From Chloroherpetonaceae bacterium (GTDB lineage: Bacteria; Bacteroidota; Chlorobiia; Chlorobiales; Thermochlorobacteraceae): a stretch of 64,000 nt of DNA. The number at the start of each line of letters is the position of its first letter. Positions within the stretch are counted from its first letter, which is position 1. This document shows positions 1,664 through 54,466 of the stretch, piece by piece. The stretch is from NCBI GenBank assembly GCA_033763895.1, contig JANRJQ010000004.1, forward strand, positions 804,319 through 868,318, written 5' to 3'. Made by a program: the position numbers and the translations under genes. The notes below the pieces were generated by a model, which did not search any database, was not told the origin of the DNA, and saw nothing but the letters and a program-made list of their open reading frames with translations.

Positions 1664-3721
1664 ATGCGATTCACCGTACCATCGCTTGAAGAGTTACAAG
1701 CGAAAGCCGCTTCAACGCTAAAGCGATTTCCACTTTCGGTTACTGTTTCATTCGGGCTGTTTGTGACCACCTTCATTGCCATTGAACATGAGCCGGATAA
1801 AATTTGGATACGTACCTGTTTTGCTTTTGCCATTGCTTTGCCGCTTTCGGTAGCGTGGCATATTGCGGCAGAACAATTAATTTCGCGACTCGTAAAGACT
1901 GCTTGGGCTACCTTGCTTCTGCTTTTGCAGGGTTTTTATATCTATGCGATTTGGAACGAGGCATTTCGGAATGAGCAGTTCTTCATTCGATTTTGGCCAC
2001 TGTTTTTTGCTGCACATCTCTTTGTGGCATTCGCACCGTTTTTGACGCGTGAAACGGCGTGGGGGCAAGACTCTCGTCAAGTGACGGAATCACTTTTCTG
2101 GGAGTATAACAAAACGCTTTTCCTAAGAAGCCTCATCACAGCGCTTTATTCAGGGGTTCTTTATGTGGGTCTATCGATTGCGATTTTAGCGCTGACAAAG
2201 CTTTTTGATTTGGAAATTAAAGGCTTCCGATACGCACAGCTTTTTTTTGCTATTCTATCGATTTTCAACACGATATTTTTCCTTTCAGGTGTGCCCCGCG
2301 CGGAGCAAATTGCTCTTAAAGAATCCGCAGAATCGCCTTACCCAATTGGCCTGAAGCGCTTTACACAGTTTGTGCTCTTACCGCTCGTTGCGCTTTATCT
2401 TCTCATTCTTTATGCGTACTTGGCAAAGATTATCATTCTTTTTTCCTTACCCAAAGGGTGGGTTTCGTGGCTCGTAATTTCTTATGCCACGGCTTCAATC
2501 TTTACCTTGCTTCTCCTTTATCCCATTCGCAATAACACTGAGAATAAATGGATTCCGATTTTTTCACGATGGTTTTATGTTGCACTTTTCCCACTCATTG
2601 GGTTGCAATTGCTTTCGATTGGGCTTCGGTTGAATCAATATGGCTTAACCGAAAAGCGGTTCATCATTTTAGTGCTTTCGCTTTGGCTCCTATTCATCGC
2701 TCTTCATTATACACTCCGCTTGAAGCGATTTTCAATCAATCACAATGGAGACTTAGGTATTCGATTTATTCCGGTTTCACTTTCCATTGCCGTTGTTTTG
2801 ATTGCCTTTTTAGCCATTCCAATGAGCTATCAAAGCCAATGGGGACGATTGAAATCACTCATGAGTGCAAATGGATTGCTTCTTAACGGAGAGCTTCAGT
2901 TTATTTTACCCGAGCGGGATCAATCAATTTCCGAAAGAGACCGAAGAGAGCTTTTTGAGACCGTATCTTATTTAAGATCATATCATTCTCTTTCAGCGAT
3001 TTCAGAGTTTATTCCGAAAGAGAAGAAGGCTACCTTTGCAGAAGTGGGTATTTCTTCAGATCAAAAAGAGTGGGATGATGGCCAATCATCGATACTAGAA
3101 TCTTTAGGCGTTTCCCCAACGCCATCAATGAACGGCTTTTTTTATTTCGACTTTTTTTCTTCCATACCTCGCATTCCTTTGAAAGGATACCAAGAGGGCA
3201 TTTTTTTAAGGGATACTTTTGAACAGGAATTCGGAAAGGATTCGATTCCAAGGTTTCGCTTTAAGGCCCAATTGCCAGATACTTCGGTTTCAATCGCAAT
3301 CGAAAATTCTGATCTTCTTTTCTTTCATACTTCAACCCAATCCGTTACCGGTGATTCTCTTATTTTGAGATATAGCCTACTTCCATTTATTGAAAAGTAT
3401 GCCGTTCAGTCACGGACAACCACAAAATCTTTTGAAACAGATTCCTCTCAGCTGATTTATTTACCTGAGGTAAAGTGTATGGAAATGATGCTCTTTATTG
3501 AATCTTTGAATGGAAATCGACTCTCTGTTGAGCGCTTATCGAATTCAGCAAGGAACGCCCAATCAGCTATGACCGATATATCTGAAGAAGAGAGCCCGAT
3601 TTTTCAAGGCGAGAGAAGCGCGAGCAATAACCCTTCTGTTCGTGAAATCATTCGAATTCAATCGCTTAAAGGAATTCTATTTTTGAAACCTCATCTTTCG
3701 AAAGAAGGGAAGACGCTGTGA
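1664..3721 (+). CDS. large polytopic membrane protein (DUF4153-like) with soluble C-terminal region
   Basis: 685-aa ORF. The N-terminal 400 aa or so has many TM helices and the C-terminal 280 aa or so is hydrophilic. Its stop overlaps the next gene's start (GTGA). Confidence 0.6.
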   Translation: MRFTVPSLEELQAKAASTLKRFPLSVTVSFGLFVTTFIAIEHEPDKIWIRTCFAFAIALPLSVAWHIAAEQLISRLVKTAWATLLLLLQGFYIYAIWNEAFRNEQFFIRFWPLFFAAHLFVAFAPFLTRETAWGQDSRQVTESLFWEYNKTLFLRSLITALYSGVLYVGLSIAILALTKLFDLEIKGFRYAQLFFAILSIFNTIFFLSGVPRAEQIALKESAESPYPIGLKRFTQFVLLPLVALYLLILYAYLAKIIILFSLPKGWVSWLVISYATASIFTLLLLYPIRNNTENKWIPIFSRWFYVALFPLIGLQLLSIGLRLNQYGLTEKRFIILVLSLWLLFIALHYTLRLKRFSINHNGDLGIRFIPVSLSIAVVLIAFLAIPMSYQSQWGRLKSLMSANGLLLNGELQFILPERDQSISERDRRELFETVSYLRSYHSLSAISEFIPKEKKATFAEVGISSDQKEWDDGQSSILESLGVSPTPSMNGFFYFDFFSSIPRIPLKGYQEGIFLRDTFEQEFGKDSIPRFRFKAQLPDTSVSIAIENSDLLFFHTSTQSVTGDSLILRYSLLPFIEKYAVQSRTTTKSFETDSSQLIYLPEVKCMEMMLFIESLNGNRLSVERLSNSARNAQSAMTDISEEESPIFQGERSASNNPSVREIIRIQSLKGILFLKPHLSKEGKTL

Positions 3722-5064
3722 GGGCTTATTTTCGCCACATTGCCGGATTTCAGAGAGATGCAAAAATATTTCTTCTTGGCTCCTTTCTCTTTTCGACCGG
3801 CACGGCCATTAATGATTTACTTTTCAATCTGTATTTAAAGGAACGTGGACTCAAAGAGTCCTTTATCGGTAGTTCAGTCAGCACCCTTGCGTTGGGAATT
3901 ATGCTAATGGCCATACCCTCGGCATTTATGGCCAAGCGATTTAGCCCCCGAAGAATGCTTATTTTTTGCGCGGCTTTTGAAGCATTTCTTTATTCCGCTC
4001 GTGCGGCTTCGTCAAACCCGATTTCGATTCCAATTTACAATGTTTTGATTGGGGCGGCAGGTGCATCGTTGCGAATTCTACCGGCGTCGGTCATGATGAC
4101 TTTGGCCGAAAAGCATGAGCGCCCTTACCTCTTTGGGCTTAATTCCGCATTTCAGATGGCAGGGTTAATGGTTGGTAATTTTCTTGGTGGATACTCGCCT
4201 GAAACATTTTTTTGGATCTTATCTGCTATCCTATTCCCCATTTCTTCAGTTGCATCTTATCAATTAGGTCTTGCTTTATCCACCGTGGTGATGCTTGCTT
4301 CTTCAGCAGTCTTTTCAAAGCTACACGCTGAGCGGAATCCATTGCCGATGAACTTCGTTGCCAATAACCCTCAAAAGACCTTCGTGAAATTGCAGGCGAT
4401 TCCTCTTTTTTTTCAAAGAGTGGTTTTGGGTGTTCAAGTTCCGTTTAAGATTTTTCATCACGTTTATGGTGATATCAAATCGAATTGGCCGGAAAGGCAC
4501 ACACGAAAGGCATTGGTCAGCATTATTTTCCCGCATACACTTGTCGCAATTGGCGCCGGCGCTACAATTCCTTTTATCCCACTTTTTTTGAAAACTGATT
4601 TTATGCTCAGCCCTTCTACGATCGGAAGCATTATGAGCGGAGTGCAAGCAGCTGTATCGCTTGGGTATGTGGCTTCACCACTCGTGACAAAGCGGCTCGG
4701 TGTACTACGGAGCATTATTGTGGTTCAAGCAGCCTCATTGCCGTTTATGGCGATCGTGGGTTTTGGGGAGTCTCTCATTTGGGCTGTATTTGCTTTGGGA
4801 TTTCGCAATGTACTGATGAATATGTCTTCCCCGTTTATCGACCAGTACAATATGGAATCGGTTCATGAATCGCAGCGGCAGTTAATCAGCAGTTTAGATC
4901 ATTTTCTTTGGAATGCGGCGTGGAGCGTGATGCCTTTTATTGCTGGGTTTGTGATTGAATGGGTTGGCTACGAACCGCTTTTTGCCTTTACGATTGTGCT
5001 TTATGCGGCATCAAGCCTTCTTTATTACCGGCGGTATCGCGAGCGACATCTTATTCATTTGTAA
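3718..5064 (+). CDS. MFS-type transporter
   Basis: 448-aa ORF with about 12 hydrophobic helices in a 6+6 arrangement and a central loop, which is typical major-facilitator architecture. It overlaps the upstream gene by 4 nt. Confidence 0.65.
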   Translation: MRAYFRHIAGFQRDAKIFLLGSFLFSTGTAINDLLFNLYLKERGLKESFIGSSVSTLALGIMLMAIPSAFMAKRFSPRRMLIFCAAFEAFLYSARAASSNPISIPIYNVLIGAAGASLRILPASVMMTLAEKHERPYLFGLNSAFQMAGLMVGNFLGGYSPETFFWILSAILFPISSVASYQLGLALSTVVMLASSAVFSKLHAERNPLPMNFVANNPQKTFVKLQAIPLFFQRVVLGVQVPFKIFHHVYGDIKSNWPERHTRKALVSIIFPHTLVAIGAGATIPFIPLFLKTDFMLSPSTIGSIMSGVQAAVSLGYVASPLVTKRLGVLRSIIVVQAASLPFMAIVGFGESLIWAVFALGFRNVLMNMSSPFIDQYNMESVHESQRQLISSLDHFLWNAAWSVMPFIAGFVIEWVGYEPLFAFTIVLYAASSLLYYRRYRERHLIHL

Positions 5065-47274: not shown

Positions 47275-47370
47275 ATTGTGCTTCTCTTTTCTTGTTCCAG
47301 ACCTTTCTTTTCCCGTTAAGGTATATAAAAAAAGGGCGCAAAGATAAAAAAATATAACTTTCCAACCAAT

Positions 47371-53629: not shown

Positions 53630-53884
53630 TTAAACTTTTTTCACATTTGATGCATGAATTGGCATTTCTCGTTCAACAATAGCCCCTTGAGGTTGTGTCC
53701 TTGTTGGACGCTGATGCTTTTTTCGTACATTGACGCCTTCAATAATGACGCGGTTTTCTTCCGGAATAACACGAAGAACTTTTCCGGTTTTACCTTTGTC
53801 GTTACCTGCAATAACTTGAACGTTGTCGTTCTTTTTAACGTGTACTTTTGGTCTTATGGTGCCTAATTTCATTGTTATCTGCAA
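53630..53884 (-). CDS. rplX: 50S ribosomal protein L24
   Basis: [27 protein letters not shown] (KOW motif). The true start is probably MKLGT at 53872. Confidence 0.93.
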
Positions 53885-53954
53885 TTCAGATTGTAGCCGG
53901 TCGAGCTGGTTTTTTTTCTATTCTTGAACCGAGCGTTTATGCTTCGGTAACTTG

Positions 53955-54027
53955 AGCGAGAGACGGGATTCGAACCCGCGACCAACAGCTTGGAAGGCTG
54001 TGACTCTACCAGCTGAGTTACTCTCGC
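53955..54027 (-). tRNA. tRNA-Gly (anticodon UCC), no encoded CCA
   Basis: Hand-folded cloverleaf: acceptor GCGAGAG/CUCUCGC, D arm ACUC-AGCUGGUA-GAGU, anticodon arm ACAGC-CUUCCAA-GCUGU, variable loop UGGUC, T arm GCGGG-UUCGAAU-CCCGU, discriminator U73. Confidence 0.9.
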
Positions 54028-54097
54028 TTGTAAGCCTTAACGAAATACCCTTAAAAAAAGGGTTGCAAAGATAGCAAACCTTTTTGAATAAAAAAAT

Positions 54098-54466
54098 TTA
54101 AATTACTTCTGGTGCCAAAGAAATTATTTTTGCATAATTCCGATCTCTCAATTCGCGTGCGATTGGTCCAAAAATTCTTGTTCCCTTTGGCTCACCTGTT
54201 GCGTTAATCAATACCACCGCATTATCGTCAAAGCGAACATAAGAACCGTCTTTACGGCGGTGTTCTTTTCGTGTTCTAACAACAACGGCTCTTGAAACAT
54301 CTTTTTTCTTCACTGTTCCACCCGGAATAGCAGCCTTGACAGAGACAACCACAACATCGCCAATACCGGCATAACGGCGATGAGTTCCTCCCGGAACGTG
54401 GATAACGCGAACCTTTTTTGCTCCGCTGTTATCGGCTACTATTAAGTTAGTTTCGTTTTGAATCAT
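54098..54466 (-). CDS. rplN: 50S ribosomal protein L14
   Basis: [24 protein letters not shown]...GPIARELR. Confidence 0.97.

Follow-up and report, generated by a model that had tools for sequence, protein, structure and literature searches.

A tRNA-Gly(UCC) gene in the rplN-rplX spacer of Chlorobiales: probable relocation into a ribosomal protein operon

The genes for ribosomal proteins L14, L24, and L5 are normally tightly linked and co-transcribed, and their adjacencies are among the most conserved in bacteria. A tRNA gene at such a place is notable: how did it come to lie there, and how might it be expressed? We addressed these questions for a 64,000-nucleotide stretch of DNA from a Chloroherpetonaceae bacterium (assembly GCA_033763895.1, contig JANRJQ010000004.1, positions 804,319 to 868,318; here called the window), in which a tRNA-Gly(UCC) gene lies between rplN (L14) and rplX (L24), within the S10-spc-alpha cluster and on the same strand as its neighbors. 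Comparison of sequences leads us to favor a model in which a relocated glyT gene forms part of a tRNA-led or tRNA-punctuated mixed operon and is co-transcribed with the ribosomal protein (r-protein) genes. We give this model a probability of roughly 0.7.

ARAGORN found a single tRNA in the whole 64-kb window, a tRNA-Gly with anticodon tcc at 53954 to 54027 on the minus strand, and Rfam RF00005 gave a full-model match at 53955 to 54027 (minus strand) with a score of 69 bits (gathering score of 29; E = 6e-13). The gene is 73 nt long and of the glyT type. A preliminary description, made by reading the letters of the window, had folded a complete same-strand tRNA-Gly(UCC) between rplN and rplX by hand and had pointed to tRNA predictors as a check; ARAGORN and Rfam both bear it out. 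The bacterial glycine identity set consists of G1:C72, C2:G71, G3:C70, U73, C35, and C36, and the window tRNA has all of its members (G1-C72, C2-G71, G3-C70, discriminator U73, and anticodon UCC with C35 and C36). CCA is not encoded in the gene, and its 3′ flank reads CAA.

Six distinct variants of the tRNA were aligned; an Ignavibacteria-like contig supplied one and Chlorobiales loci the other five. All six pair at 100% of stem positions, and only three stem positions vary (4:69, 5:68, and 52:62), each by compensatory double substitutions. Because pairing is full and the stem changes are exclusively compensatory, the pattern is, by this alignment, the mark of a working tRNA under purifying selection and not of a relic. 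Three of the six variants are shared between Chlorobiales loci and tRNA-cluster contigs of Ignavibacteria-like type, and the acceptor-stem variant GCGAGAG was seen in the window alone. The element is, in short, a functional-looking tRNA-Gly(UCC) gene, predicted to read GGA and GGG. A special codon demand of the r-protein genes for this tRNA was considered and dropped, as GGA and GGG make up 43% of Gly codons in translation genes versus 48% in the window's other genes.

It is very improbable that the element does not decode and is instead a decaying pseudogene, the relic of an att-site integration, or a tRNA-like regulatory structure. Such an origin would suit the general role of tRNA genes as common integration targets, and it would suit one relative (L007; GBChlB, JPGV01000009.1, ~3370 to 3532) in which a truncated, mutated tandem copy precedes the intact tRNA-Gly. 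That copy covers the 5′ two-thirds of the tRNA plus the upstream spacer and is either a decaying duplication or an assembly artifact. The full-model Rfam score, the complete set of identity elements, the stem pairing described above, the variants common to Chlorobiales loci and Ignavibacteria-like clusters, and the conservation of the gene across the whole order (see below) all argue for a decoding tRNA. The 3′ end of the tRNA is also unduplicated in the window, where its neighbors are r-protein genes only. A mobile-element remnant was ruled out specifically: the last 22 nt of the tRNA have no second copy in the window (allowing up to 3 mismatches), and there are no relevant direct repeats. 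Comparison of the rplN-rplX region with a phage collection by blastn returned generic tRNA and r-protein similarity only and was uninformative.

Is the arrangement peculiar to this genome? With the window L14 as query, a scan of one representative genome for each GTDB species yielded 80 loci. The ten nearest, whose L14 proteins are 84 to 91% identical to the window rplN product, came from Chloroherpetonaceae, Thermochlorobacter, or “Chlorobiales” metagenome-assembled genomes (MAGs), and nine of these ten species-representative genomes carried a same-strand tRNA-Gly(tcc) directly downstream of rplN. In the same scan, a tRNA at rplN was absent from 70 of 70 loci from other phyla. Further loci were collected starting from L24 homologues. 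The tRNA lies between rplN and rplX in Chloroherpeton thalassium ATCC 35110 (CP001100), Chlorobaculum parvum (CP001099), and Prosthecochloris (CP016432), likewise in Chlorobium-type genomes, MAGs, and contigs and in Thermochlorobacter, and 15 metagenome contigs have the same rplN/rplX context. In total, 32 Chlorobiales loci besides the window show the arrangement. No tRNA was found between rplN and rplX in Ignavibacteriales contigs (gap of 21 nt) or in “Bacteroidetes/Chlorobi group bacterium Naka2016” (gap of 10 nt), and it was absent from ~75 non-Chlorobiales loci in all, the sister Ignavibacteria included. Among the ~110 rplN loci scanned, a tRNA next to rplN was thus confined to Chlorobiales.

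The lone Chlorobiales locus lacking the tRNA, that of the MAG Chlorobiales bacterium ES-bin-17 (L009), has an rplN-rplX gap of 33 nt (3370 to 3402). A rough neighbor-joining tree of six r-proteins, in which bootstrap values are unreliable, places this locus within the lineages that carry the tRNA and so hints at a secondary loss, with a basal position as the alternative. The same locus has an unusual 327-nt gap with a 72-amino-acid open reading frame (ORF) between rplX and rplE (3643 to 3969). As judged from the genomes compared, the arrangement is an old trait of the order Chlorobiales, which comprises the green sulfur bacteria and their relatives, and is not peculiar to this genome. The preliminary description had left the comparison with relatives to be made; the feature survives it, and the novelty is largely removed, the arrangement being order-wide and present in long-available public genomes. 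No paper describing it turned up in literature searches, and one may nevertheless exist.

To trace the origin of the gene, we searched metagenome contigs for a 73-nt pattern that admits every Chlorobiales variant of the tRNA. It matched 120 contigs. In 15, those noted above, the context is rplN/rplX; in 104, the match falls within a cluster of tRNA genes, which in the great majority is Thr(UGU)-Tyr(GUA)-Gly(UCC)-Thr(GGU)-…-Trp(CCA). Where these contigs were inspected, the genes that follow are rpmG, secE, nusG, rplK, rplA, rplJ, rplL, and rpoB, with tRNA-Trp sitting between rpmG and secE. For the one of these contigs whose NusG protein was searched (L140), the relatives carry the names Ignavibacteriae, Ignavibacteriales, or Bacteroidota only. 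The Ignavibacteria among them belong to the sister group of Chlorobia. Because the same tRNA type sits in a classical cluster in the Ignavibacteria-like contigs, the Chlorobiales ancestor probably moved glyT from the Thr-Tyr-Gly-Thr cluster into the rplN-rplX spacer, in the same orientation. The clusters themselves vary: in L110 and L175, tRNA-Gly(CCC) adjoins Gly(UCC) within a Tyr-Gly-Gly-Thr-Trp cluster; L185 carries the same tRNA-Gly(UCC) sequence in another cluster, Pro-His-Arg-Gly-Arg-Lys-Leu; and some metagenome tRNA clusters are ordered Thr-Tyr-Thr-Gly.

The spacers around the tRNA bear on its transcription. In most Chlorobiales, namely Chlorobiaceae, C. thalassium, and T. aerophilum (L008), the 5′ spacer is 8 to 18 nt and the 3′ spacer is 31 to 46 nt, and both are unstructured. 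Because such spacers leave no room for a separate intergenic promoter and terminator, it is nearly unavoidable, on the sequences at hand, that the tRNA of these short-spacer Chlorobiales lies within the r-protein polycistronic transcript. In Chlorobiaceae (L083-L088, L101-L103, L108, L122, L130, L165, and L170), the 3′ spacers share a conserved motif of approximately TTTATGAATA(A/C)TATCATA, which lies immediately before the start of rplX, includes the short inverted repeat TATGA/TCATA, and may be a processing or translation signal. Both spacers are expanded in the window and in L001-5, L012, L106, L202, and L206, to 70 to 82 nt (5′) and 77 to 128 nt (3′).

In the window, the tRNA is preceded by rplN (uL14, 122 amino acids; 54098 to 54466, minus strand), an ORF whose identical product in L081 matches Pfam Ribosomal_L14, and followed by rplX (uL24, 80 amino acids; 53630 to 53872, minus strand), after which come rplE, rpsN, rpsH, and further same-strand genes. 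The rplX product starting at ATG 53872 is 100% identical over its full length to P0001, “50S ribosomal protein L24 [Chloroherpetonaceae bacterium],” and a TTG at 53884 was rejected as the start on that ground. Because rplX starts at ATG 53872, the rplN-rplX gap is 225 nt (53873 to 54097) and not the 213 nt first given. It comprises a 5′ spacer of 70 nt from the rplN stop to the tRNA (54028 to 54097, minus strand) and about 81 nt of 3′ trailer plus rplX 5′ untranslated region (53873 to 53954, minus strand; fold z = −1.9). The other junctions of the cluster range from −74 to 94 nt and are mostly 3 to 61 nt; the larger ones are 93 nt (rpsN-rpsH), 94 nt (infA-rpmJ), and 80 nt (tuf-rpsJ). The preliminary description was right that most are short, and its two exceptions of 93 and 96 nt become 93 and 94 nt, joined by the one of 80 nt.

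A consensus scan of the gap revealed no strong intrinsic terminator on the coding strand, and on the gene strand of the tRNA-rplX interval (53873 to 53954) neither the scan nor folding revealed anything terminator-like. Rfam in E-value mode, applied to the gap and to one relative's gap, returned nothing credible beyond the tRNA. Two claims of the preliminary description fared well here: the lack of a convincing coding-strand terminator on either side of the tRNA was upheld, weak hairpins being found on the 5′ side only, and the prediction of co-transcription was strengthened by the short spacers of the relatives. Antisense to the operon, the interval between the tRNA and rplX holds a terminator-like hairpin (AGCCGGTCGAGCTGGT) with T8 behind it (53895 to 53911, plus strand); read on the gene strand, the same letters give an A8 run and then a much weaker hairpin. 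The tRNA and the protein genes thus lie on one strand with no terminator between them, as in a mixed operon, and because no terminator lies past the tRNA, transcripts should reach rplX-rplE.

The preliminary description took the tRNA to be cut out of a polycistronic mRNA spanning rplN and rplX. Read-through from rplN is possible, but a conserved promoter-type box in the 5′ spacer had gone unnoticed. This box (TATCTTTGCAACC) is conserved in the window's sub-clade 39 nt upstream of tRNA position 1. In the window it reads TATCTTTG-CAACC (54061 to 54073, minus strand), a TAnnTTTG −7 element of the Bacteroidetes/Chlorobi RpoD type with a C-rich, discriminator-like segment. An alignment of the window with L001-5 and L012 has TATnTTTGCnnCC as the most conserved block of the 5′ spacer, and in these six genome relatives the block belongs to a complete TTG-N19/20-TAnnTTTG. 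The full motif is unique in the 6.3-kb locus, on both strands, in five of the six; L012 has one more, on the opposite strand. TTG/TAnnTTTG is the −33/−7 promoter type of Bacteroidetes. In Chlorobaculum tepidum, differential RNA sequencing yielded a main RpoD motif that most resembles TTG-N17-23-TAnnTTTG (bioRxiv 10.1101/172254).

The box recurs at a second place in the cluster. The 13-mer TANNTTTGCNNCC has two copies in the window, both on the gene strand and in the two largest spacers of the r-protein cluster. The second promoter-like element, a motif match in the infA-rpmJ spacer (47334 to 47369, minus strand), reads TTG-N20-TATCTTTG-CGCCC followed by a T-run. Its box is kept in C. thalassium, T. 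aerophilum, and the L004 genome (positions in relatives: L216, 996 to 1008; L217, 1032 to 1044; L218, 1026 to 1038), the L002 genome having it with one mismatch, and box plus C-rich segment upstream of rpmJ are conserved in four Chlorobiales lineages. By this conservation, the rpmJ box is likely the internal promoter of a rpmJ-rpsM-rpsK-rpsD-rpoA-rplQ unit and would mark the start of an alpha-type unit. The box upstream of the tRNA is a probable r-protein-class promoter with a GC-rich, discriminator-like segment, by analogy perhaps akin to stringently controlled promoters. A transcription unit tRNA-rplX… with the tRNA at its head is thus probable in the sub-clade of the window, either beside read-through or as the main source of the tRNA.

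Directly past the −7 box, the terminator scan found a small hairpin, ACCCTT-TTTTT-AAGGGT (54047 to 54063, minus strand; ACCCTTTTTTTAAGGGT, then ATTTCGTT). It has positional equivalents in every clade member, with other stems (CCCGTT/AACGGG, CGCCCC/GGGGCG, ACCTGT/ACAGGT, and CCCAT/ATGGG); covariation comprises two pairs with double changes, which is weak formal support. If the box is a promoter, the leader would begin with this hairpin as a 5′ stem-loop; otherwise the hairpin might weakly attenuate read-through from rplN. A −7-type box was also seen inside rplN elsewhere: in L087/L088 and L139, the codons for ..VSLAPEV in the last 30 nt of the gene are TATCTTTGGCGCC or TATCTTTGGCTCC, which amounts to an exact −7-type box at a distance of 27 nt from the tRNA on its upstream side, resembling the intergenic box of the window clade. 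It may be a chance product of coding constraints or an internal promoter.

Several observations weigh against the favored model. The window's own copy of the box lacks a TTG at −33 spacing. TAnnTTTG is unenriched both in the whole window (47 observed versus 57 expected) and in its intergenic DNA (7 observed versus ~6.5 expected), and because of this only conservation argues for the promoter call. Relocation as opposed to duplication, and the single-copy status of the gene, are things that we infer. Past the rplN stop, at a distance of 20 nt, an alternative hairpin (GGTTTGC/GCAACCC) followed by T7 gives a terminator-like, if weak, signal ahead of the tRNA. Finally, a sequence-conserved stable hairpin (−19 to −28 kcal/mol) and then AAAATTTTTCTC come after the tRNA in the close relatives L001-5, L012, and L106, where this structure may attenuate read-through into rplX.

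The lack of a −33 TTG and of any enrichment would be expected if the tRNA were a pure passenger, made only by read-through from the promoter of the upstream S10 part, as has to be so in Chlorobiaceae, and the box were not a promoter but something else, such as an RNase site or the loop or U-rich tail of a hairpin in the RNA. The short-spacer relatives do without an intergenic promoter, and the box can pair with an upstream A-tract in the relatives and sits in a hairpin loop in the window. Yet the sequence of the box is kept while its predicted structural role differs, a loop in the window and a 3′ tail in the L001-type spacers. The same box with its C-rich segment is, moreover, conserved upstream of rpmJ in four lineages, and it matches the promoter class reported for Cba. 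tepidum. On balance we consider the passenger explanation unlikely, while taking it seriously.

The hairpins raise the opposite possibility, that the tRNA gene is autonomous, with its own promoter and terminator, and divides the cluster into two independent operons, neither transcribed into the other. The box itself, the weak terminator-like hairpin between rplN and the box, and the stable hairpin with T5 after the tRNA in L001-5, L012, and L106 could all be parts of such a unit. The last of these is GCGTCAATCTTCAC…GTGAGATTGACGC, flanked by an A-run and AAAATTTTTCTCAAAA (~3530 to 3590 in L001-L005 and L012). Hairpin and AAAATTTTT downstream of the tRNA were found only in these relatives and are absent from the window, which has no hairpin with a U-tract between the tRNA and rplX and so lacks the downstream terminator that an autonomous gene would need. 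Even in the relatives, AAAA separates the U-run from the stem, and the hairpin showed no covariation and matched nothing in Rfam. Read on the antisense strand, it would make a better terminator by its looks. No second promoter-like box precedes rplX, so an autonomous tRNA gene would leave rplX and the following genes promoterless, and in the short-spacer Chlorobiales such a unit is impossible. We regard an autonomous gene as improbable.

The favored model, a relocated glyT in a mixed operon, would run as follows. In the common ancestor of Chlorobiales, glyT would have left the Thr-Tyr-Gly-Thr cluster (upstream of rpmG-tRNA-Trp-secE-nusG-rplKAJL) and, oriented like the genes around it, become fixed between rplN and rplX in the S10-spc-alpha cluster. 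In the window sub-clade, the spacers would then have expanded, and a TAnnTTTG promoter with C-rich discriminator would have arisen 39 nt upstream of the tRNA. Transcripts started at the box, plus any read-through from rplN, would run through the tRNA into rplX-rplE-…; RNase P would cut at the tRNA 5′ end, and a 3′ endonuclease, exonuclease trimming, and CCA addition would complete excision, parting the …rplN mRNA from the rplX… mRNA. For the window, both co-transcription and this outcome of tRNA processing are what we infer from its sequence. The mechanism is an instance of the known mixed tRNA-mRNA operon and RNase P processing and works in the ordinary way.

Several known systems resemble the arrangement. 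The tRNAs of the tufB operon are matured from a common transcript. In Escherichia coli and Salmonella, that operon has thrU-tyrU-glyT-thrT, so that glyT shares an operon with a gene for a protein of the translation apparatus, and Salmonella glyT is the sole tRNA predicted to read GGA (PMC6134099). The isoacceptor is the same here, and contigs with the Chlorobiales-type tRNA have the exact Thr-Tyr-Gly-Thr cluster. The Chlorobiales locus differs in having one tRNA in the middle of the S10-spc-alpha cluster rather than a four-tRNA block leading tuf, and in that co-transcription is predicted. In E. coli metY-rimP-nusA-infB and secG-leuU, one tRNA shares a unit with genes of the gene expression machinery, and RNase P and RNase E processing separates tRNA from mRNA. 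The likeness lies in a single tRNA gene accompanying gene expression proteins; those tRNAs, however, come first or last in a short operon, whereas here genes lie on both sides, in a cluster of ~30 genes.

In organelles, tRNAs between coding regions act as punctuation, serving as cleavage signals that free the flanking mRNAs. The tRNA of Chlorobiaceae and C. thalassium, 8 to 18 nt from the preceding stop codon, comes near to this, although it is one tRNA at one junction and cleavage there would have to be assumed. Direct abutment on the flanking coding regions is approached in these relatives (8 to 18 nt 5′, 31 to 46 nt 3′) and is not seen in the window, with its spacers of 70 and 81 nt and its probable promoter. 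The Salmonella S10-spc and spc-alpha junctions are inter-operon terminator-promoter overlaps (PMC6735719). In the window clade, the spacer after rplN similarly joins a hairpin and U-rich segment with a promoter-like box, and a second such box lies at rpmJ, where the alpha-type unit starts. Unlike the Salmonella junction, this one is displaced by one gene (rplN|rplX versus rpsQ|rplN), includes a tRNA, and has a putative promoter of the −33/−7 Bacteroidetes/Chlorobi type.

The locus lies in long-public genomes and opens no long-standing question. Its interest is of other kinds. The insertion is a simple rare-genomic-change marker for Chlorobiales, including Chloroherpeton and Thermochlorobacter, and the system is tractable because Chlorobaculum tepidum is culturable and genetically accessible. 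It raises the questions of whether, once the tRNA is excised, the two halves of the operon differ independently in stability or translation and whether the supply of tRNA-Gly(UCC) is tied to r-protein transcription. A bolder reading, which we hold only tentatively and think rather doubtful, is that Chlorobiales hard-wired what is possibly their sole GGA/GGG tRNA as punctuation that has physically parted the L14 message from that of L24 ever since the order arose, with a new operon boundary in the window clade. If true, that clade would have a terminator-promoter junction one gene off S10|spc, with a stringent-type promoter driving tRNA-Gly and the spc genes. For the order as a whole, the insertion would then be a clean synapomorphy with one secondary loss and a test case for tRNA excision versus the stability of operon halves.

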